64,000 bases of DNA from IMG/VR virus record IMGVR_UViG_3300029702_000002, one strand, 5' to 3'. The notes below the pieces were generated by a model. It saw nothing but the letters and a program-made list of their open reading frames with translations, was not told the DNA's origin and did not search any database. A program made the position numbers and the translations under genes. Position 1 is the stretch's first letter. Every line of letters starts with the position of its first letter. This DNA comes from a virus (taxonomy: Duplodnaviria > Heunggongvirae > Uroviricota > Caudoviricetes). Positions 1 through 58,446 of this stretch are shown here, piece after piece.

Positions 1-908
1 TTACGTGATACCTCCTGGCTTATGCCTAATGCTGGGAAGTAACTACGCGCAGTACGGCGCAAATCTCGGGGTGTAAATGGCTCAAGCTCCATCAGTTCTG
101 GTCGTTCCAGAATACGACGTAATGCCTGGGCTATTGCCACTTTAGACATAGGAAGGTCTTTCCCGATTTTTTTATTCGAAGGCACGAGCCACTGGCTGTC
201 TTTACCATATTCGAACAACTCTTCAATACAAGTGCGCATTAATGAGCTTAAAGGCAGAGAATGCTCACGGGCAGATTTGTTCCTCTTGCCTTGATTCCAA
301 ACCCCACGCTTAAGATTGAACTCACTTTTTTTAGCCCGCAGTACTTCGTCAGGTCGTCTTGCGGATACAAGACATAGCCTGGCCGCCCATTTTGTACCAG
401 CACACACATTGAAGTAGTCCCATATATTCCAGAACACCCATACCTCTGCGTCGGTCAGCTTCCGCTCGCGAGGTGTGGGCTTTGCGCCACCGGCAACTTT
501 GTTAAGTGACATATCGTTTAACGGTGACACGTCTATCATCCCCTGGAAGGCGCACCAGCTAAGGAACTGCTTCATCAGAGAGAAAACGCGGCGGCCCATA
601 ACAATTTTGCCATCCAGTATTAGTGGGTTGACCAGTTGGTTCACCATGAACCTATTAATGTCACTTACTTTTACATCGGCAATGTGCGGCAAAACATGTA
701 TCAAAATACAATGAACAGCGATCTCTGGCCGACGTCTGGTTATCAGCAGAGATAAGCGAGTGAATAACATGAATGCGTCCGAGAATCTCATGTCATTGCT
801 GACCTGGGAGATCATAACGGCCTGCATTTGAGATGCTCTTTCGAGATACTCTATCGCCTCTTTTGAGGTGTTCTCCGCAGCGCGTGCTCTGTCAAAGCTA
901 TTTTTCAT
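1..908 (-). CDS. int: Tyrosine integrase (phage integrase family), partial; C-terminus outside window
   Basis: Minus-strand ORF from ATG at 908 with no stop in window; translation ends ...FTPRDLRRTARSYFPALGISQEV matching integrase box II region, with an upstream ARRPDEV...HSLPLS box I-like region. Confidence 0.6.
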   Translation of the reverse strand, partial: MKNSFDRARAAENTSKEAIEYLERASQMQAVMISQVSNDMRFSDAFMLFTRLSLLITRRRPEIAVHCILIHVLPHIADVKVSDINRFMVNQLVNPLILDGKIVMGRRVFSLMKQFLSWCAFQGMIDVSPLNDMSLNKVAGGAKPTPRERKLTDAEVWVFWNIWDYFNVCAGTKWAARLCLVSARRPDEVLRAKKSEFNLKRGVWNQGKRNKSAREHSLPLSSLMRTCIEELFEYGKDSQWLVPSNKKIGKDLPMSKVAIAQALRRILERPELMELEPFTPRDLRRTARSYFPALGISQEVSR

Positions 909-1695: not shown

Positions 1696-1897
1696 TTATT
1701 ACCCCACCTCTGCAGAACGTTTGAGCCTTGAAATGGGCGAAAGACTACAGAAAGCTGCTGGTCAGGATTTAAAGAACAAGTTGGGTTCAGGGGAAATTAA
1801 ACTGATTAACGGTAAATATGTAGGTGAAAGCCTGAAAGTTAATAGCACCTCTATGCTAAAAGCGCGGTTGCGTAAAGCGTATATCCCCGCTAAATGA
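1670..1897 (+). CDS. Hypothetical small protein (75 aa)
   Basis: ATG at 1670 preceded by AGGAGGAAGAGG ribosome-binding site; overlaps stop of upstream ORF; followed by hairpin terminator. Confidence 0.45.
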   Translation: MSSRLKVINYYPTSAERLSLEMGERLQKAAGQDLKNKLGSGEIKLINGKYVGESLKVNSTSMLKARLRKAYIPAK

Positions 1898-1926
1898 AAA
1901 GGCCTATATGGGCCTTTTCATTTTTA
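1897..1926. terminator. Bidirectional intrinsic terminator hairpin (AAAAGGCC-TATAT-GGGCCTTTT)
   Basis: GC stem flanked by A-run and T-run between convergent genes. Confidence 0.6.
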
Positions 1927-2169
1927 TAGTGTACTCACCAGCGCCGCAAATTCCGTATACCCCCCAATATGCTCTCCATGTATGAATATCTGAGGTATGG
2001 TATCCACTGGTTTACCAACCAGGTTGCTCAACGTTTCTTTGTTGATCCCCGCAGATGTAATATCTATATACTCATAATCACCGTAGCCATGTCCCTTTAG
2101 TTGCTTCGCCAGCTCGACCGCACGTTTGCAGTATGAGCAGTTATCTCGTCCGTAGATAGTGATCGTCAT
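1924..2169 (-). CDS. Glutaredoxin/NrdH-like redoxin (81 aa)
   Basis: N-terminal CSYC active-site motif (YGRDNCSYCKRA) and glutaredoxin-like length. Confidence 0.7.
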   Translation of the reverse strand: MTITIYGRDNCSYCKRAVELAKQLKGHGYGDYEYIDITSAGINKETLSNLVGKPVDTIPQIFIHGEHIGGYTEFAALVSTL

Positions 2170-2342
2170 AACTTAACAAATACCTTTATAAATATTGATT
2201 CGAACATATCAGACTATACTACAAACAGATTTTTTTGATAAGTATGTAGTAACTTATTGATTGACTAGTAAACAATTGAAGTGATTACGACAATAGATTA
2301 CAGTAAGGATTGCCTTGAAATGTACATTTTATAGAGGTTTTA

Positions 2343-3251
2343 ATGATTGGTAAGTTGTCTGATTCTTTGATTGAAAATAAATACAACGAATTTAGAGAAG
2401 AAATATCTTTACTTTTTGACTATTTAAATCAGATAAATGATACAACAAAGAAAAATATAAAACGTCTTCTTAAAGAAGTGGAGTATGCACAAAATCCAGA
2501 TACTATTATTAATATTAATGAAACTATTAAGATTAAGTGTGGCACAACGTTAGCTCGCCATTTATGTTCAAACCCATATACAGGTTCAACATTAGAGATA
2601 GGTAACAGCGCCATTGATTTAGAAGAAAAGATAAGATTGTGTAATACTTTGAAAAATAAACAATATCAGTGGGTTATTACTGAAGCCTATGAGTTACTGG
2701 AAGACTATATTGAGGCAATATATGTCTATACTGTATGTGTTCGAAATGATTTATGGTCCTCAAGTGATTTTGGTAAGGTTGAAGATGATGAAATTGGGAA
2801 AAGGGAAGTTTATTACAGATTATTAAAAGCAAAAAGTAACCCATCGAAAAAAATAACTAAAATTTTCAGAAATAAAATACCTGGCTTCAAAGAGATAGAA
2901 ACAAACAACAAGATTGGCAAAAACTATCGCTTTAACATCAAGCTAATTGAACTACTAAGACATACAATAGTACACAATAGTGGACGATTCAATGATACAG
3001 AAAAATTTATAAATAAGGTTTTAGATGAATCTGAAATAAACGGTAAGAAAAGAGTTATTGGAGAAAGAGCTGTTAGAAGTTACATTACTAAAGTGCAAGA
3101 AGATGATATTGTGATGCTCTTAGAAAGACCATCTGAAATTTTAGGTTCTTTTGGTGGGTATTTTAACAGAGCAAAATTTTTACTAAGTGATATTTTAGAA
3201 TACTCACTAATCATTAAAGAAGAACTAAAATCATATCTAGGCAATCATTAA
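2343..3251 (+). CDS. AT-rich hypothetical protein with HEPN-like Rx4H motif (LRHTIVHNSG); candidate abortive-infection protein
   Basis: 302-aa ORF with markedly lower GC than neighbours; R-x4-H motif in C-terminal half; own terminator. Confidence 0.5.
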   Translation: MIGKLSDSLIENKYNEFREEISLLFDYLNQINDTTKKNIKRLLKEVEYAQNPDTIININETIKIKCGTTLARHLCSNPYTGSTLEIGNSAIDLEEKIRLCNTLKNKQYQWVITEAYELLEDYIEAIYVYTVCVRNDLWSSSDFGKVEDDEIGKREVYYRLLKAKSNPSKKITKIFRNKIPGFKEIETNNKIGKNYRFNIKLIELLRHTIVHNSGRFNDTEKFINKVLDESEINGKKRVIGERAVRSYITKVQEDDIVMLLERPSEILGSFGGYFNRAKFLLSDILEYSLIIKEELKSYLGNH

Positions 3252-3252
3252 C

Positions 3253-3282
3253 AAAAAAGGGGCCGAAGCCCCTTTGGATTTT
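3253..3282 (+). terminator. Intrinsic terminator (AGGGGC-CGAA-GCCCCT followed by T-run)
   Basis: GC hairpin plus U-tract directly after stop of 2343-3251. Confidence 0.65.
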
Positions 3283-3429
3283 GCGCTTAAAAAAGTGTTG
3301 CTAGGATGTTAGCAAGCTATGGTTAAGAACGTCTGCCGTAATTGTCTATCACAGCGTTGAGCTGTCTGGTTTATGTTAGCGGAGTCTTAATCGAGTTGAT
3401 TAAAAGGCCAAACCGCTCAACGCTGTGTC

Positions 3430-3516
3430 TGGCGGAGAGTAATGGAATCGAACCATCATCGCTTGCGCAATGGGACGGTTTTCAAGACCGCTTGAGCACC
3501 ATGCTCCCTACTCTCC
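3430..3516 (-). tRNA. tRNA-Ser (anticodon UGA), long variable arm, CCA encoded
   Basis: Manual cloverleaf: acceptor GGAGAGT/ACTCTCC, anticodon loop CUUGAAA, T-loop TTCGATT, 3' GCCA. Confidence 0.85.
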
Positions 3517-3729
3517 AATTGTTGTGGTGCCGGGTGCTTCCCGGTGTCCTTTGGCTGGTTATCCACCGTGGACGGAGCCAATAGTCATCACAAAGGATCA
3601 ATATAACCATTTCCCCGCGTGCGCTTAGCCGCATTCACCACAACGAAAAGAGCACTGTATGACGTTTGCACGGACTTACGCTTCAAACAGGGCAGTCTCG
3701 GCGGTTCTCAATGCTCTTTCCTGTTGTGT

Positions 3730-3805
3730 TGGTGCCGGTTAACGGATTCGAACCGCTGACATCCTGCTTACAAGGCAGGTGCTCTACCAACTGAGCTAAA
3801 CCGGC
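3730..3805 (-). tRNA. tRNA-Thr (anticodon UGU), CCA encoded
   Basis: Acceptor GCCGGTT/AACCGGC, D-arm TAGCTCAGTTGGTAGAGC, anticodon loop CUUGUAA, T-loop TTCGAAT. Confidence 0.9.
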
Positions 3806-3807
3806 AT

Positions 3808-3882
3808 TGGCGATGGTGGGTGGATTCGAACCACCGACCAGTTGGTTAACAGCCAACTGCTCTACCGCTGAGCTACACCATC
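3808..3882 (-). tRNA. tRNA-Asn (anticodon GUU), CCA encoded
   Basis: Acceptor GATGGTG/CACCATC, anticodon stem GTTGG/CCAAC with loop CUGUUAA, T-loop TTCGAAT; 2 nt from tRNA-Thr. Confidence 0.85.
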
Positions 3883-4342
3883 AATTCGGCACTGCCAGTA
3901 TTTATTACTCAACAGTGCCAATCGCGACGGTTTAGTTTCTGCCAGGAAACGCACCGCTACTTGCACTTTTCGTTAGTGCCAGACGCTTTCGACTTCGCTC
4001 AATAGTAGAAGGCAAAATCTTTAAGTAGATGATGTTTCTGAGGACTGCACCTACTTTGTAATTTATACAATGTGATGTATGGAATCATTTGTTGTGAAAA
4101 CAGGCACCAATGGCAACAGTGGTTAAACCTACACAACTATCCTGTCTTCACAACGTTGAGGCCACTACTCCGATTGAATGTTTGCCCAACATGTTACATA
4201 TCAACGCTCGCCGGTATCTCTGTGAATAGAACCTTAGAATTGATAAAAATGTAATGGCCTCAACGTTGTGTGCTGGCTAACCATACCAGCCGGGCTACGT
4301 CGCCGCTTTTTAACCCAGTATAAACGACATAATTGAACAAAA

Positions 4343-4457
4343 TGACGTAACAGGATGGGCGGTCATTGGCTAAGAATCCGGGAGTCGTATATGAGTTGAA
4401 AATATACTGACCGCCCATCCTGTTACTTCATCGGAGGGAACATTCATGTTCCCTCCT
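4343..4457. ncRNA. Candidate structured RNA: 23-bp near-perfect inverted repeat (4343-4365 / 4408-4430, 42-nt loop) immediately followed by 10-bp GC hairpin (4434-4457)
   Basis: Arms TGACGTAACAGGATGGGCGGTCA and its complement read directly; no ORF support; next to tRNA cluster. Confidence 0.35.
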
Positions 4458-8482: not shown

Positions 8483-8714
8483 TTTGACTTCCCTTTATTT
8501 ATATTTATCGTAGGTATTAGTTAACCAAAACACGAGCAGTGTCACAATAATTCCATAACTTATTATTTCCACTAGTGATTAATACCACATCAACTTTACG
8601 GTTCATAAATTAAATTATCAAAGCTGACAGATTAACTAAATTTAAGTACCCTTTTCGCACACTTGACGCTTGCCGCGTCTAAACTGTTCATCCTATATCA
8701 ACAGAATAAAAAAC

Positions 8715-9860
8715 ATGAAATACATAAAATCTTCTTCGTTGCTGGCATTAACTTTGCTTTTTAGCTCTGGATTCGTTAACGCAGACAATAAACAAACGTT
8801 GATAGAAGCCGCTACCGCAGGTGATACCGCAGCACAAAGTGAGTTAGGGACAAATTATTTGGATGGTGTCAATGGTTTTGATAAGGATGTAGTTGAGGCA
8901 AAGAAGTGGATTGATCTCGCTGCAGAAAAGGGAGATAAAGTAGCATATTATGCACTTGGAGTTATGTACACATTTGGCGAGGGTGTAGATAAAGACCTAA
9001 ATAAAGCTGTTGAGTACTACAAACTTGCGGGGGATGCTCGTGAAGGTAGAGCCTACAACAATCTTGGTGCTATTTATCAAAAGGGGATGCTTGGTAAAGT
9101 AGATCATGCACTCGCCATTAAATACTTCAAACTAGCCTCTGATGTCGGGTATGTTAAAGCAACTTCAGTTCTTGGGGCGTATTACCAATATGGTAAAGGC
9201 GTTAAAAAGAATTATAAAAAGGCTTTTACTTATTACAAAAAGGCGGCAGACCAAGGCAGTTCAGAAGCTATGATAGGATTAGGAATACTATACGATGATG
9301 GGTTAGGCGTTAAACGCAATGATGCAGAAGCAGTTAAGTGGTATAAAAAGGCAGCGGAACTTGGAAACGCCGACGCCATAACCAATCTTGGCATTATGTA
9401 TGAGAATGGGGAAGGTGTAAAAAAGGACTATAAAAAAGCAGCCGACCTTTATCAGACTGCTTGCAATAAAGGAGAAAAAAGAGGCTGTGAATACATTGCT
9501 GAACTGAAAGAAAGCGGAAAATATCGAGTATCTGATTCCAAAGCCAAATCAAAATCAGATGTACAGCGACTTATTGCTAAATCCATTGATAAAGGCGTTA
9601 ACGCAACATTTACCTGGCAGGGTGATGATGCCGTCTTCACCGCTAATGATGGCAAAGTTGACTGCACCTTCTTGAAGGATTTTTCAGAGAAAGGAGGCAA
9701 TCTGGCTACCTCGTTTGTTTGCACCGATAACGTTCAAATCATCCTGAAGCAATTCAGAGATACCAAGAATGCCTACCTCGCGGTAATGACTGACAACTTC
9801 AACACAGAAGTTAAATCATTTTCGGTCAATGTTTACGTGACTAATACTGGTTCAAACTAA
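8715..9860 (+). CDS. Secreted Sel1-repeat (TPR-like) protein
   Basis: Signal peptide MKYIKSSSLLALTLLFSSGFVNA then at least 6 Sel1-type repeats (G-x-x-Y/N-x-x-G-x-G-V-x-K-D/N-x-x-x-A-x-x-W/Y-Y-K-x-A-A); start taken at ATG 8715 inside longer ORF 8670. Confidence 0.7.
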   Translation: MKYIKSSSLLALTLLFSSGFVNADNKQTLIEAATAGDTAAQSELGTNYLDGVNGFDKDVVEAKKWIDLAAEKGDKVAYYALGVMYTFGEGVDKDLNKAVEYYKLAGDAREGRAYNNLGAIYQKGMLGKVDHALAIKYFKLASDVGYVKATSVLGAYYQYGKGVKKNYKKAFTYYKKAADQGSSEAMIGLGILYDDGLGVKRNDAEAVKWYKKAAELGNADAITNLGIMYENGEGVKKDYKKAADLYQTACNKGEKRGCEYIAELKESGKYRVSDSKAKSKSDVQRLIAKSIDKGVNATFTWQGDDAVFTANDGKVDCTFLKDFSEKGGNLATSFVCTDNVQIILKQFRDTKNAYLAVMTDNFNTEVKSFSVNVYVTNTGSN

Positions 9861-18138: not shown

Positions 18139-21100
18139 TCAGTTACTTGTTGCCCCAACAGTACCTGCAAATTTCAGCCATTGACCTGACGGACTTCTAT
18201 TACTACGGTAGTGATAAACGAGGATTGCGTTTGTAACTCCACCGTAGTCAGCTTTATGTGACGTTGTTAAACGAATTGTATAATCACCGTTAGGTAGATT
18301 AAAAACTTCGATTATAGATTCTGCTAATTCTACAGCACCAAATCCCGTTATATTGTTGATACTGCCAGCATTGAATCCCATAGCATCGCCAAAGCCAATC
18401 CAATAACTTTTGCTAAACGCCCCATTTGATTTTAGGTGGCTAATGAATGCGGACAAGCTCATGCCCATATCCCCACCTGAAACAGAGGAAGTTCGCACAG
18501 TCATGCTTGGAAGAGCACTGCTCTTCACATAGGAACTTAGAAGGTTTGTTACCTCTGTTTTCGTGTAAGCATTAAGGTTAGCCGCAGTCAAAGTTATATC
18601 GGCAGAGCCATCAAACGCCACACCAGCAATTTTCCTTGCTGTCTGCAATTTTGTGGCGGTTGCGGCATTACCAGTAGTGTTCTGATTACCAGTTGTATTC
18701 ACACCAGGGATTGAATCCTTAGCGGTATATACCTGCGCCCACGCTGACCATGCCGCACCTGTGTTATCTCTTCGTGAGCGAATGAAAACTGGCGCATGTG
18801 CACCGCTCGTACCACTCCAGCCAATAAGCAACTCTCCCTCACCAGCAGCACTCGCACCTTTCATGTGCAATACGTTGCCATACATGGTCGGGTAGCTATT
18901 GTTGTACGCCTCATACATTTGAATGCCAGCAGTGCCTTGAGTAGAGCCGCTTAACGCCGTAACTCGGCCACGAGATACCAATGTATTAATATTGATATCG
19001 CCTGAACCATCAAACTTAACACCATTGATGTTTCTCGCTGTTTGCAACTTCGTAGCTGTTGAAGCATTACCGTTCAAACTACCATTTACGCCACCAGTCA
19101 CATTTAGTCCATTACCAATTGATACAGCACCGCTGGTATTATTAATTGTAATAGGTCGCAAACCGTTCCATGAACCTAATGTGTCTCCTGATGCTGTTAG
19201 CATGAAATATGTGTTCGATCCATCATTACGGATAAAGAACCCAAAGCTACCGTAAGCAATGCGGAAACCATTTGCATATTTTGAAATGATCTCGCCAGAA
19301 GATGTCAAACCTCCAGATAATGTACCACCGGTAAGAGGTAATGCACCGACATCAGAGGCTGTTGGTTTGTTTTTCGTGTTATATACTCTTCGCCATCCTG
19401 GAGAATAATCTGTGCCATTAAATACATAGATAAACTCCGCATTAGTGAGAGCACCGGAAACACTTGTCGTTGTGGCCGTTGTTATGCGGATCGTATAATT
19501 ATTTGAACTACTACCGTTATTAAATACTTCTATAACAGCTCCTGCCAATGGAATAACGCCACAACCAGTTTCACTATTTGGTATGGTTGCGCTATTGGCA
19601 TAGGCCCACGCACATCGAGCAATCCATGCCTTTGTGTTAAAGGCTCCATTATTTTGCAATAACGTCACTAACTGGGCTGTTGTTATTGCTCCGCCATTAC
19701 TTCCTGTAGTTAACCAACCAGTAGGAGATGCTGGGCAACCTATATTTGCTGGTGACAAGGAAATATTTGCCGAACCGTCAAACGACACCCCATTAATAGT
19801 ACGCGCAGTCTGCAACTTCGTAGCAGTAGCCGCATTACCTGTTGTATTCTGATTACCAGTCGTATTAACACCTGGCAAATTAATATTTGCAGTACCATCA
19901 AAGCTCACGCCGCCGATAGTTCTTGCCGTCTGTAGTTTTGTAGCAGTTGCGGCATTACCAGTGGTGTTCTGATTACCCGTAGTGTTTACACCTGGAAGAT
20001 TAATATTGGCAGAACCGTCGAAACCAACTCCACCGATAGATCTTGCCGTCTGTAATTTCGTTGCTGTAGCAGCATTTCCTGAAAGACTTGAAATAAATGG
20101 ATGTGAACAGTAATAACCTCGTCCATTTTTAAAGTCCAAAATTATCTGTGCATTCGTACTTTCTGATAAAGGATCAGTTGCCCCCCACTTATAAGTGGTT
20201 TGACCAACTGCATAATCAGCCGTTGGAACAATCACATTTAATCCTTCCTCAGCAAAAATCTGGATAGGGAATGCTCTTGTCTCAACGTAAAATACACTAC
20301 ACAAATCATCATCTTTCACGCTTGCGATAATCGAGTGTATAGATCGTTCAACGGTTGAATATATTGAGAAAAAACCAACAGCATATGAACCGCGATCAGA
20401 CCAACCGCCCGGCATAACAAAACCATTAAACTCACAATTATTCATAGCGTATCCGCCAGCTGAGGAATAAGTGGTGATAACCACTCGTGAGGCTAATTCA
20501 TCTGTGCCACCACCAGTTCGGCGAAAGACTACAGGATACCACTTACCGCTTACTGCATTTGCAGGAGCAGAGAAAGTGTATTTTCGCATCCCCTTTTTCT
20601 TATCCACTTCACCTTTGCTGTAAACATTAATGTTATTCAGGAAGCGGCCCTTGTCGGGGATATCAGCACCATTCTGATCCTTCTGTAGTCTTTTTTCAGC
20701 ATTATCATATGCGGCCTTAACTGCTTTTGGCGTTGCGGCCAGCGATTCACTGGTGCTATCGACAGCACTGCTAAGTTTCACAACACCTTTAGTTGTAAGG
20801 CTTGCGTCTTCCATCGCAACTGCACCGGCAATCTCTTCAGCACGATCAGCAGCAGCTTCCGCACGGGTCGCAGCGGATTCAGCAGCAGTTTTGCTCTGAG
20901 ATGCTGCCGTCGCACTGCCTGCCGCCTCTGTTGCTTTCGTGGATGCTGTCGTGGCGCTGCCCTTCGCTGCGGACGCTTGTCTGGTCGCCTCATCTTTTGA
21001 AGCAGACGCCGATGATGCCGATGACGCTGCCGAACTGGCGGACGATGCGGCTGCCGTTTTTGAGGATTCTGCACGGGTTTCCGACGCTTTCGCGTTCGTT

Positions 21101-55403: not shown

Positions 55404-55529
55404 TTCACTCTCCGTAGTGTTTTGGTTATTTTTATATTCTATGATCGTAAGTATGTACTTACAATACAAAAAAGCCCCGTAAGGATGGCGGGGCTGTCGT
55501 ACGGTCGACTAATTACCACTTGCACATTA

Positions 55530-55841
55530 TCAGGCTATTGCCATCACTGATGCTCTCTGAATCTCTTGCTGGGCCACGCGGTTAACTTCCATCAAAGCCA
55601 GTTCGAGCTGATGTTCCGGCCACATTCTTTGAAATGCCACCCAGCCTTTTCCACGCTGGCGACGAACATTCATTACATAACGAGTAAAGGTGTTTTTATC
55701 GAAAGACACCGCTGTTTCACGGAACAGACGAATAGAGGTTCCATTGGCAACGATGTCCAGCAAAGTTAATTGAGCAACCAGCGCAGGCTTCTCTTTTCTC
55801 TTCTGGTCTTTGTCCAGACCAAGAACCAATGATTTTTTCAT
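55530..55841 (-). CDS. Hypothetical basic protein (103 aa)
   Basis: ATG 55841 with GGAG site; conserved upstream element at 55853-55867. Confidence 0.5.
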   Translation of the reverse strand: MKKSLVLGLDKDQKRKEKPALVAQLTLLDIVANGTSIRLFRETAVSFDKNTFTRYVMNVRRQRGKGWVAFQRMWPEHQLELALMEVNRVAQQEIQRASVMAIA

Positions 55842-55994
55842 CACAACTCCGTAAACAACTTGTTTTCTCAATGGCGTAAATAATACCAGTAAGAAAACGG
55901 CTACAAAGCATATTGATCAGGTGCATGAGCTATATGCAGGTTCTTCCCTGCGGCTATAGAGAAATTAAGCCAGCAATGCTGGCTTTGGTTGGGG

Positions 55995-56324
55995 TTACTC
56001 GAATACTTCAAGAAACTCCTGAACGTCCCAATGCTGGACGAGGTGAAGATAGACCTTAGAAATCACGTCATTTTCGCTATCGCATGTGAAGTAGTACTTC
56101 TGGCTGCGGTTGTATGTGTCCACACAAAATTCGCTCATATCCATAAAGTCAGCATCTTCACCCAGGTCGCTGATCATCAAAGCAGGTGCGTCATCACGAG
56201 TCATCAGTTCCAGCACCCATCTTGAATTGATCAGAGTGGAAGACCAACCTTCTAACTCATAAAACTGATCAAACTCTTTTTGAGTTAATTTCTTGATTTG
56301 GTTGATGTCGATATTTGTAAACAT
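55995..56324 (-). CDS. Small acidic hypothetical protein (109 aa)
   Basis: ATG 56324 with AAGGA site; conserved upstream element; 3' hairpin 55968-55986. Confidence 0.5.
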   Translation of the reverse strand: MFTNIDINQIKKLTQKEFDQFYELEGWSSTLINSRWVLELMTRDDAPALMISDLGEDADFMDMSEFCVDTYNRSQKYYFTCDSENDVISKVYLHLVQHWDVQEFLEVFE

Positions 56325-56679
56325 AAAGCAATCCTTAAACAACATGTTTTCTTGATGGTGTTATTATCGCAATAACGCACAGGCGAAAAAGGATTTTGTT
56401 CCGGTGAATGTGGTTTTGGCAGTGAGTTTTCAGGTTCAGTACCGAGTACACTTTTTACATTATTCTGATTTAGTGGCCGAAAGTGGCTGGTGGCAGAGTA
56501 ATCCTCTCCCCAAAAACCTACTGAAATCGATTGTGACCCGTTGGCTGTCTGGCACAATTACGCTGTAGCTGGGCATTCAGAGGGAATCCAGCGGTAAGCA
56601 AGTCCGCCTACGTGAGCGCCTCTCTTCTTCCCGCACATTACAGGTGGGTAGCCGCAACTCTCCCTCTCGCTATACCGGT

Positions 56680-56830
56680 ACGCCACCGTTCCTGAACCGG
56701 CATCGAGCCTTTTCCCGAAATCCACACAGGCAACTCGACCGTTTCCCTGAAAACCTCCAGCCGTTCCCCGAAGGCAACCCAGCCGTTTCTGTAGCGGGAT
56801 GCAGCCTTTTCCCTGTATGGACCGAAGGCT
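56680..56830. repeat. Iteron-like direct repeats (CCGTTTCCCTGAAAACC family), cluster B, 6 copies
   Basis: Six imperfect 20-23-bp units in tandem, same family as 53070-53155. Confidence 0.55.
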
Positions 56831-56859
56831 GACCGTAGGGGTGTTACGGGGGGATAAAA

Positions 56860-57780
56860 TCAGGAGTTGAATAAATACGAAAAAGGAGGCGACACCCCTC
56901 CTTCCCTCCCCACTTATACATACCTGGCTTCTTCGCTATACATGTTGTGTTTTATCTGTCTCAACCTCTCTATAGGCGTTAATGCTCACTCCTTCCAGAA
57001 TGTTCTATACGGCGACTATTTCTGTTGGTGAATTGGGTGTGTTGTTTTCTCTGTCGGTGTATGTGGTTTCGTTCGTTTTGCGGTGGTTCTTCTATGGGGT
57101 GTTCTCGTCGTTTTGGTGATTGTTCTTCTCCGTGTATGGAGTAATGGCAGGTGGGCGATTCCTTTCGTTGTTGTGTTTGAGTTGTTTGTCTGGAGTGTGT
57201 GAAAGGCTTTTGTAGTTATTCGTGTATTGGGTAATGGCGTTTCCCGTGATTGTTATGTTTCGTGTCTTTTGGGATTGAGAGAATCCTTGCGGTTACAGGC
57301 TTCGTTGGGGTTTCAGCGGTTCAGGTGTTTCTTCGCTGTTTGGGTAATGGCGTGTCGTGGGTATCGCGCGTATGAATGTTTTCGGATTGCCTGTGAAAGT
57401 TAGGTTGGTTGTCCGGTAGCCTGGGGAGAAGAGGTGGGTCTTTTCGGTAGCCTGCCATAAAGAGGTTGGTTGTTTTTGGGAATGGCATGTGTGTTATTTA
57501 GTTGTTTTGTTATGCCTGAAAATAAGTTGTTTATATGGTTGTGTAACGCAACGGGAGCGATTTTGAGCGTGTGTTTTTGTTGGTAGTGTGTTGGGTCGTC
57601 TGTGGTGAAAATTGGACGCTGTGGCGCTGTCTGCTGCGTAGCAGTTACGGGTATAAGAAGTGATGTGTGAAAACGTCAATTTTTTAGACCAAATCGGGTG
57701 AAAGCGTTGACGTTTCGTTGATCTGTTATTTAGTTGTTTTCTTATTTGTATAAACAACCATAACCTATTGATATTTAAGG
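56860..57780. repeat. ORF-free GT-skewed region with degenerate direct repeats of about 115 bp (units begin GGGTAATGGCG)
   Basis: Plus strand almost exclusively G/T-rich for about 900 bp; three GG(G/A)GTAATGGC copies and two CGGTAGCCTG copies. Confidence 0.55.
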
Positions 57781-57876
57781 GTATGATTGCAGGTATGGAA
57801 GGGGAGTAGTGGCGATCAACGGATTCTTATAGAAAAGAATCAAATTGTGACCGCCATTATCAATAAGTTGCAACCG

Positions 57877-58446
57877 TTAGTTGTTCAGATAAACATTTGG
57901 AACACGGACGTAGAAGTTCCTGTCACCGGTAAGTTCCAGAGTAATGTTAATGTCATTACCATTGTCTAGTGTAGCCGTTGCTCTATAGAACTTATCCGTC
58001 ACCTTGTCCTCTATTGTCACCTTCATACATTTTGGTGCAGTCGAACCGTTATTCTCTTTCAGAATAGTTGTCACGAGAGGGCAGGCTGCTTCTTCAAGAG
58101 CAACCTCGTCCTTGTGTGGGATGCCGATGAAGATAATCCAAGCCAGCGACGCAACGATTATGATAAATGGCACTCTGCTGCCTTTTGTAATAGTCGCGCG
58201 CTTCCAGAGATAGACAGGCAGGAGGAATACCCCCCATAGAATTGAAGGTGGTTCACAGCCAGACTCCGATAGAGCCATTCTGTCAGCTACTAACAAACCG
58301 ATGGTAGTTACACCCCCAATTATAATAGCGTAATTGGTATACTCTTCCGGCAATACTCCAAAGAAGAAAGGCATGAACGCTAGAATCCACGCATAAATGT
58401 TATTCAGAGGTTTTGTTTGTTGGTTCTGGGTTTCCATCACATCCAT
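57877..58446 (-). CDS. Integral membrane protein (189 aa)
   Basis: Several hydrophobic segments. Confidence 0.5.
   Translation of the reverse strand: MDVMETQNQQTKPLNNIYAWILAFMPFFFGVLPEEYTNYAIIIGGVTTIGLLVADRMALSESGCEPPSILWGVFLLPVYLWKRATITKGSRVPFIIIVASLAWIIFIGIPHKDEVALEEAACPLVTTILKENNGSTAPKCMKVTIEDKVTDKFYRATATLDNGNDINITLELTGDRNFYVRVPNVYLNN

Follow-up and report, generated by a model that had tools for sequence, protein, structure and literature searches.

HEPN-like proteins encoded by single cargo genes of SSU5-like phage-plasmids and other mobile elements: a widespread family and a candidate for abortive infection

Close to the integrase gene of an E. coli phage-plasmid lies a gene for a stand-alone protein of ~300 aa, one of a widespread family without a name. 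This family is most probably a diverged lineage within the HEPN superfamily. The gene lies in a 64,000-nucleotide stretch of viral DNA (IMG/VR record IMGVR_UViG_3300029702_000002), the whole of which is called the window here and is assigned by its sequence to an SSU5-like E. coli phage-plasmid. Comparison with related elements identifies the gene as swappable cargo in a variable slot between the glutaredoxin gene grxA and a tRNA cluster. Because a conserved motif and a predicted fold that are both HEPN-like are found together with a swappable cargo slot, the gene is a reasonable anti-phage candidate. It has, in our estimate, about an even chance of encoding a self-contained HEPN-superfamily RNase that acts in abortive infection, by analogy with the prophage protein HepS. 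The members of the family have so far been labelled only as "hypothetical protein" or as PHROG 35492.

The open reading frame at 2343-3251 is a real gene because it runs for 302 codons in DNA of 29% GC and because hundreds of full-length homologues exist. Its GC content of 29.2% (GC3 22%) compares with 46.2% for the window, and it is the lowest-GC 900-nt stretch in all 64 kb. The original prediction, which was made from the sequence of the window alone, had described an AT-rich gene whose 302-aa product contained LRHTIVHNSG, a match to the R-x4-6-H signature of HEPN RNases. The base composition, the reading frame, and the motif are all as described. Residues 204-214 read LLRHTIVHNSG, the R206 codon occupies 2958-2960 and the H211 codon 2973-2975, and R206-H211 is the sole Rx4-6H in the protein. 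The product falls in PHROG 35492, where function is unassigned. The original prediction also conceded that its call rested on a short motif, and this weakness was rightly flagged: an Rx4H is present in 19% of residue shuffles of the 302-aa protein and an Rx4-6H in 48%. In other words, the Rx4H motif by itself is no more than chance. It becomes meaningful because R206 and H211 are two of the three invariant columns among 138 homologues. The coordinates of the gene and of the features around it are collected in Table 1.

Table 1. Positions in the window of the HEPN-like gene, its conserved codons, and the surrounding features
Feature	Position	Strand	Remarks
Site-specific integrase, 5' part (N-terminal 302 codons)	1..908	-	Window begins inside the gene
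GrxA-family glutaredoxin gene	1924..2169	-	Left landmark of the variable slot
Divergent intergenic region between grxA and the HEPN-like gene	2170..2342	.	173 bp, 26% GC; left part of the exchanged cassette
Shine-Dalgarno-like AGAGG	2333..2337	+	5 nt before the ATG; read from the sequence
HEPN-like protein CDS	2343..3251	+	302 aa; identical to WP_001755525.1 ("hypothetical protein")
Codons 93-135, conserved helix, consensus KNKQYQWLLxEAYExFEDFLxxxYA	2619..2747	+	Conservation peak, one of two in the family
E117 codon, in helix 93-133	2691..2693	+	Invariant acid; candidate second, acidic HEPN active-site residue
Rx4H motif codons, R206-H207-T-I-V-H211	2958..2975	+	Predicted catalytic residues
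GGGGCCGAAGCCCC hairpin with flanking A- and T-runs	3256..3275	.	Bidirectional terminator-like, directly after the stop codon
tRNA-Ser(TGA), tRNA-Thr(TGT), tRNA-Asn(GTT) cluster	3430..3882	-	Right landmark of the slot; backbone, kept in gene-less relatives

The family was collected by an exhaustive profile search over 1.84 billion representatives. The search returned 453 cluster representatives at E<=1e-3, of which 142 reach E<=1e-30; nearly all are full length (~290-310 aa). A word-indexed search found close relatives from Escherichia and Klebsiella plus two distant sequences, and nothing else. An alignment of 138 sequences, consisting of the window protein and 137 relatives, has a mean column identity of 24%, and its only invariant columns are E117, R206, and H211. 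Thus, the two residues that had been read as a HEPN signature in one protein are invariants of the whole family. Ten further positions are conserved in at least 90% of the 138 sequences: N105, Q107, W110, Y127, W138, E186, N189, H207 (96%), V210 (99%), and G214 (at least 96%). The exact pattern E..R....H occurs in 94 of the 138 full-length matches, and most of these 94 read RH[IVTL]IVH. Conservation peaks at residues 93-135 (KNKQYQWLLxEAYExFEDFL) and 195-215 (LIExLRHxIVHxxG); mean column conservation is 0.55 in residues 93-135, compared with 0.24-0.35 in the N- and C-terminal parts. The N-terminal 92 and C-terminal 87 residues vary freely. Past H211, only G214, F222, L259, and L280 are well conserved, and there is neither a conserved Tyr nor a second conserved Arg/His in this part of the alignment.

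Two local similarities to other proteins were also seen. Residues ~114-140 (window 2682-2762), with the pattern EAYExFxxFLxxxYxxxxxxDxxFW, have a recurrent weak likeness to the C-terminal segment of flavin-dependent halogenases. The matches were to CmlS (3i3l, residues 365-435, E 0.021), to the NCBIfam model halo_ClmS in eight members, and to a tryptophan-halogenase PHROG in one. The CmlS similarity is confined to the EAYE...FW helix and was treated as a local motif. A link to TrmL (NCBIfam, seven members, best E 2e-5) was rejected because the match is a short local "RG-P-SIL" and its hhalign score is 12.

The structure of the window protein was predicted by AlphaFold2 with eight sequences (pLDDT 78) and with the 138-sequence alignment (pLDDT 94, pTM 0.90). 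The predicted fold is almost wholly helical. It begins with a 50-residue N-terminal helix, a beta-hairpin (69-91), and a 40-residue helix (93-133) that carries E117. These are followed by several short helices, a helix at 195-212, a loop at 213-218, a helix at 219-229, a hairpin at 248-257, and a long C-terminal helix. In both models, R206-H211 closes helix 195-212 at its C-terminal end, and a loop follows. In HEPN domains, the Rx4-6H motif lies at the end of core helix 3 and runs into the loop to helix 4, the position after the conserved Arg is most often filled by N, D, or H, and helix 2 contributes a further conserved acid, typically as Ex3[K/R] (PMC3710099). The family agrees with this description in its conserved Rx4-6H, in the polar residue H207 that follows the Arg, and in the predicted position of the motif at a helix end. 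E117 is invariant in the upstream helix 93-133, but the residue at +4 is Asp and not the Lys/Arg of the usual form.

Searches with the predicted structures also point toward HEPN domains. Of the 45 chains that best match the first model, at least 15 show the HEPN fold. They include the HEPN toxins 8xdj, 5yep, and 7ae2, the chains 2hsb, 1ylm, 1ufb, 3o10 (sacsin), 1wwp, 4nqf, and 1wol, and also Csm6, Csx1, AbiA, MtlR, and kanamycin nucleotidyltransferase; the alignments typically cover 110-127 of ~130 target residues. With the better model, seven HEPN chains are in the top 60, and more generic and designed helical proteins intrude. A Foldseek search against the PDB gave no meaningful match, only helical noise. 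The model is taken to match, by superposition, the up-down, all-alpha bundle of HEPN domains with solved structures. The predicted fold therefore appears to resemble HEPN domains, and the structural support is moderate and not decisive.

Can the family be linked to a known HEPN or Abi family through sequence profiles? No model of Pfam, NCBIfam, or PADLOC was significant for the window protein, the 138 members, or the family consensus, and the same was true of curated HEPN/Abi profiles for each of the 138 members and the consensus. The original prediction had proposed a protein of the AbiD/AbiF (Abi_2) type and had named an HMM search against HEPN and Abi_2 profiles as a check. This search gave only sub-threshold HEPN matches. 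Abi_2 (PF07751) did not match the window protein at E<=10 in Pfam, and it was absent from the recurrent matches listed for the 138 members and from the matches of the consensus. Judged by these profiles, the protein is not a member of the AbiD/AbiF family, and that part of the prediction has to be given up. The broader HEPN reading retains the conserved motif, its helix-end position, and the likeness of the predicted fold, but not a significant profile link.

The sole Pfam match of the window protein is to DUF3644 over the motif region (E 2.9; 7.9 bits versus a cut-off of 27.6). Sub-threshold HEPN matches recur among the members: DUF3644 in 3 of the 138 (best E 0.0065), HEPN_Apea in 2, Csx1/Csm6 in 2, and Cas13a in 1. 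This recurrence is suggestive only. DUF3644 overlaps the EC042_2821 HEPN family (PMC3710099). A DUF3644 alignment was built from the EC042_2821 protein of E. coli 042 (Pfam E 5e-47) together with 9 genomic and 56 metagenomic relatives, and it was compared with the present family by hhalign. The comparison set RHTIVH on RDQAVH with a score of 14-21. There is no demonstrable profile link to DUF3644, because this score is within the range of 30 column-shuffled controls (9-19) and a reversed control (16). A search of the PDB by sequence returned nothing relevant from either the single protein or the family profile, the latter run at E<=10.

The slot that holds the gene was defined by comparison with close relatives of the phage-plasmid. 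Among phage records, the closest are those of Escherichia phages CMS-2020a and Cyrano, which are 96-97% identical to the window over most of its first 8 kb. Proteins 99.7-100% identical to the window protein are encoded on 23 non-mobilizable E. coli plasmids (108-120 kb for those listed), and a scan of 5,426 complete E. coli genomes finds the gene in 19, every time plasmid-borne. In the comparison with Cyrano, homology is lost where grxA ends and returns precisely at the terminator behind the stop codon; in place of the HEPN-like gene, this phage has a 116-aa Phage_gp49_66 gene. In Enterobacter relatives, the slot is taken up by Gp49, a small ORF, and PhoH. In the plasmid pZ1323HEC0016-2, the slot is filled by an allele with 56% identity. 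The backbone of this plasmid matches the window at 97.6-98.1%, whereas the stretch from grxA through the gene to tRNA-Ser is only 76% identical. The allele has 38.5% identity in Klebsiella and 43% in Citrobacter. Overall, slot alleles are 38-59% identical, and all the measured ones are AT-rich. The original prediction had placed the gene in an integrase-proximal region of the kind where defence cargo lies. The closeness to the integrase and the cargo character of the gene are borne out: the integrase (1-908, minus strand) is ~1.4 kb away, the gene appears to be swappable, and the slot varies among relatives.

The gene had also been described as insulated by terminators, which is correct on its downstream side only. 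The G+C-rich hairpin after the stop codon is backbone sequence common to gene-less relatives, and it also terminates the minus-strand tRNA operon. Since homology with the gene-less relatives resumes exactly there, this hairpin marks the right junction of the cassette. A second terminator-like hairpin, read by eye at ~1897-1920, lies beyond grxA and is not adjacent to the HEPN-like gene because grxA stands between them. On the plus strand of the intergenic region 2170-2342, no strong sigma-70 consensus was found.

A second variable slot is present between the integrase and grxA (1040-1943). In the window, it contains two overlapping plus-strand ORFs (1159-1695 and 1586-1897) without a Pfam match. 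The stretch is missing from pZ1323HEC0016-2, is occupied by another gene in Cyrano, and holds a YafO-family toxin and its partner in Enterobacter and Klebsiella relatives. On the other side of the gene, the tRNA-Thr/Asn cluster shares ~90% identity with its counterpart in P1, P7, and D6-type phages, a match that reaches tRNA-Ser in P7 and D6; the remainder of the element is unrelated to these phages. A ~205-bp stretch between tRNA-Ser and tRNA-Thr (3494-3662 / 3517-3729, minus strand) is missing in Cyrano, in which the two tRNAs are 8 bp apart. This stretch matches the Rfam sRNA STnc100 with 44.1 bits (E 1e-7), against a gathering score of 47. Rfam revealed no RNA family over 1800-4400 besides the tRNAs and this sub-threshold STnc100-like match 3' of tRNA-Ser, and no tandem repeats were found at the HEPN-like locus.

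Other parts of the window have features of their own. An ORF-poor region of ~2.3 kb (~55500-57870) displays an extreme G+T bias on the plus strand, with a GC skew of +0.37 and an AT skew of -0.32 at 57001-58000. It holds degenerate repeats such as TGGGTAATGGCG, spaced 90-113 bp, and is a possible origin, iteron array, or packaging region. A 120-bp tandem repeat (2.2 copies, 79% identity) is located at 19808-20076. A 396-aa protein (8670-9860, plus strand), annotated as a tetratricopeptide-repeat protein in a near-identical plasmid, has by eye Sel1-like repeats and a signal-peptide-like N-terminus. It sits among replication genes and is an unusual cargo for such a module.

The surroundings of the family were probed by blastp clustering of all ORFs within 5 kb at 17 diverse loci. 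No neighbour gene was conserved across the 17 loci with their 5-kb flanks, and the ORF clustering tied the window only to three SSU5-like Klebsiella-type loci. Adjacency to tRNA genes was likewise seen in the SSU5-like lineage only. Annotation of the neighbours by PHROGs and Pfam identified integrases, Ant, tail, lysis, and tra genes, and no MNT gene. A family member lies directly after the integrase at two loci (L008 and L016) and near the integrase in a P2-like prophage; a 314-aa neighbour in that prophage is not a paralogue. Elsewhere, the neighbours are a serine recombinase, an Ant anti-repressor, a tail-completion gene, an endolysin, a tail protein, a resolvase, and an HNH gene, and one member lies amid the transfer genes of an ICE, on the opposite strand. 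These are typical positions of mobile-element accessory genes. One 32%-identical member was found in E. coli chromosomes (GCA_012992465.1; 9300-11250 of the extracted locus) as a single-gene islet of ~31% GC between tam and uxaB, where it took the place of the 5' part of yneE. A search of 5,426 complete RefSeq genomes of E. coli did not find this islet member in any of them. Because the chromosomal copy stands alone, an obligatory antitoxin is argued against. The type member of the DUF3644/EC042_2821 HEPN family is located directly downstream of the integrase at the tmRNA site in the ssrA island of E. coli 042 (L025, 16913-19501), and this order of integrase then HEPN is like that of the present family in L008, L016, and L094.

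Several single-gene HEPN abortive-infection proteins are already known, namely AbiD/F, AbiV, AbiU2, and HepS. The present family resembles AbiD, AbiD1, and AbiF (PF07751) as a single-gene abortive-infection candidate on mobile elements with a HEPN-type Rx4-6H, but it has no Abi_2 match and a different architecture. The minimal HEPN toxins of the HEPN-MNT (type VII) systems include HI0074 (1jog), SO_3166 (5yep), 7ae2, and 8xdj. To our knowledge, such toxins have ~130 aa and are always paired with an MNT nucleotidyltransferase antitoxin. The present family differs from them in its length of ~300 aa, its large insertions, and the lack of an MNT gene among the neighbours at the 17 loci. DUF3644/EC042_2821 (PF12358) is similar in its sub-threshold match over the motif and in that the E. 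coli 042 member also directly follows an integrase, but the hhalign score is no better than shuffle noise. DUF3644 proteins occur in R-M operons and carry fused wHTH, restriction-endonuclease, and Zn-ribbon domains (PMC3710099). For the E. coli 042 member, the only such match in Pfam is a sub-threshold EC042_2821 REase-like one.

The closest parallel is HepS, the "HEPN Solo" abortive-infection protein of the Gifsy-1 prophage (PDB 9OIJ/9OIK; PMC13043305). HepS has no partner, stays inert before a phage protein binds to it, is non-toxic when over-expressed, and is activated by siphovirus tail-tip proteins; once active, it cleaves tRNA anticodon loops and targets Thr and Ser tRNAs (PMC13043305). 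Like HepS, the present protein is a single HEPN-like protein carried as accessory cargo by temperate phages, with no partner or inhibitor gene and with an Rx4H motif, which is essential in HepS. The two differ in size and in motif position: HepS and its homologues have <250 aa and the motif at R100-H105, whereas the present family has ~300 aa (302 in the window protein) and the motif at 206-211. Furthermore, the present family is predicted to have a long N-terminal helix and two beta-hairpins. HepS itself was not found in the LT2 Gifsy-1 record. None of the family-level membership tests that were run placed the present family in a known one; it has an architecture of its own and is entirely unannotated.

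How might such a protein act? We infer RNase activity, dimerisation, a trigger, a target, and a defence phenotype along the following lines. The helices at 93-135 (with E117) and 195-212 (with R206-x4-H211) would form a metal-independent RNase site, which would probably be completed by dimerisation as in other HEPN enzymes. Since there is no partner gene, the protein would be held inactive by itself. A component of an infecting phage would switch it on, and the activated protein would cut tRNA, mRNA, or rRNA. As a result, the infection would be aborted and the clone carrying the phage-plasmid protected. The variable N-terminal helix, the beta-hairpin, and the C-terminal part may be surfaces for sensing or oligomerisation. 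A bolder version of this proposal is that the family is an independently evolved, self-contained sensor-plus-effector HEPN nuclease with HepS-like logic on a different, larger scaffold, in which the rapid turnover of alleles in the one slot reflects changing trigger specificities; we regard it as quite unlikely. A more speculative extension is that the protein is an anticodon nuclease and that the adjacent tRNAs (Ser-TGA, Thr-TGT, Asn-GTT) permit the element's own lytic cycle despite the cleavage. This is of low probability, because the tRNA adjacency is restricted to the SSU5-like lineage and the tRNAs persist in gene-less relatives; no evidence was found that links the tRNA cluster of the phage-plasmid to the HepS-like cleavage of Thr and Ser tRNAs.

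The HEPN likeness itself may be read differently. The protein could be a non-nuclease helical bundle, such as a regulator, an adaptor, or an inactive HEPN-like scaffold (e.g. MtlR), whose Arg, His, and Glu serve in binding or stability and whose resemblance to HEPN domains is generic to four-helix bundles. The missing significant profile link to any HEPN family, the negative Foldseek search, and the presence of the non-catalytic HEPN folds MtlR and YggD among the structure matches are all consistent with this explanation. However, an Arg, a His, and one acid are the only residues that stay invariant at ~24% identity, and this strict invariance is read as the signature of a catalytic site; the canonical spacing of the motif, the polar +1 residue, and the helix-end position argue in the same direction. 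A non-nuclease bundle is therefore somewhat unlikely. A degenerate relative of tyrosine recombinases or of Ndc10-type DNA-binding domains is disfavoured and highly improbable. It is true that "LRHT" resembles recombinase box II and that Pfam NDC10_II matches weakly over ~150-200 in five members (best E 0.0017) and in the family consensus (E 4.9e-4; 19.7 bits versus a cut-off of 26.3). These matches are below the Pfam threshold, however, and the almost entirely helical predicted fold and the alignment past the motif, where neither a conserved Tyr nor a second Arg/His is found, speak against such an origin.

Alternatively, a HEPN-type RNase could serve the phage-plasmid itself, either as an addiction toxin with an unrecognised small-protein or RNA antitoxin or as a factor of the lytic cycle that degrades host RNA or counters host defence. 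The evidence for an enzyme is the same as for the defence reading. Plasmid-borne HEPN toxins are common, as in the HEPN-MNT systems, the neighbouring variable slot holds a YafO-family toxin-antitoxin pair in relatives, and the gene adjoins the element's tRNA cluster, although this adjacency is limited to the SSU5-like lineage. An antitoxin is not easily accommodated: there is no conserved neighbouring ORF across diverse loci, the chromosomal copy lies alone between housekeeping genes, and the locus shows neither tandem repeats nor an Rfam RNA beyond those already mentioned. Moreover, the gene is not needed for the life cycle of the phage-plasmid, because many otherwise near-identical phage-plasmids lack it. 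Service to the element is thus an unlikely function.

If the reading of the gene as a self-contained HEPN RNase in abortive infection is true, a function would be gained for a family of hundreds of sequence clusters, which is found in Enterobacteria and far outside them, on phage-plasmids, prophages, ICEs, and chromosomal islets. Because SSU5-like phage-plasmids are common in clinical E. coli and Klebsiella, the finding would bear on the host range of phages used in therapy. One SSU5-like Klebsiella plasmid reportedly cuts the plating of lytic phages 10-100-fold, and the gene responsible was not identified (PMC8969562). Single-protein HEPN immunity on temperate elements would then have a second scaffold in addition to that of HepS, and the grxA-tRNA slot of SSU5-like phage-plasmids would be an exchange point for such cargo.
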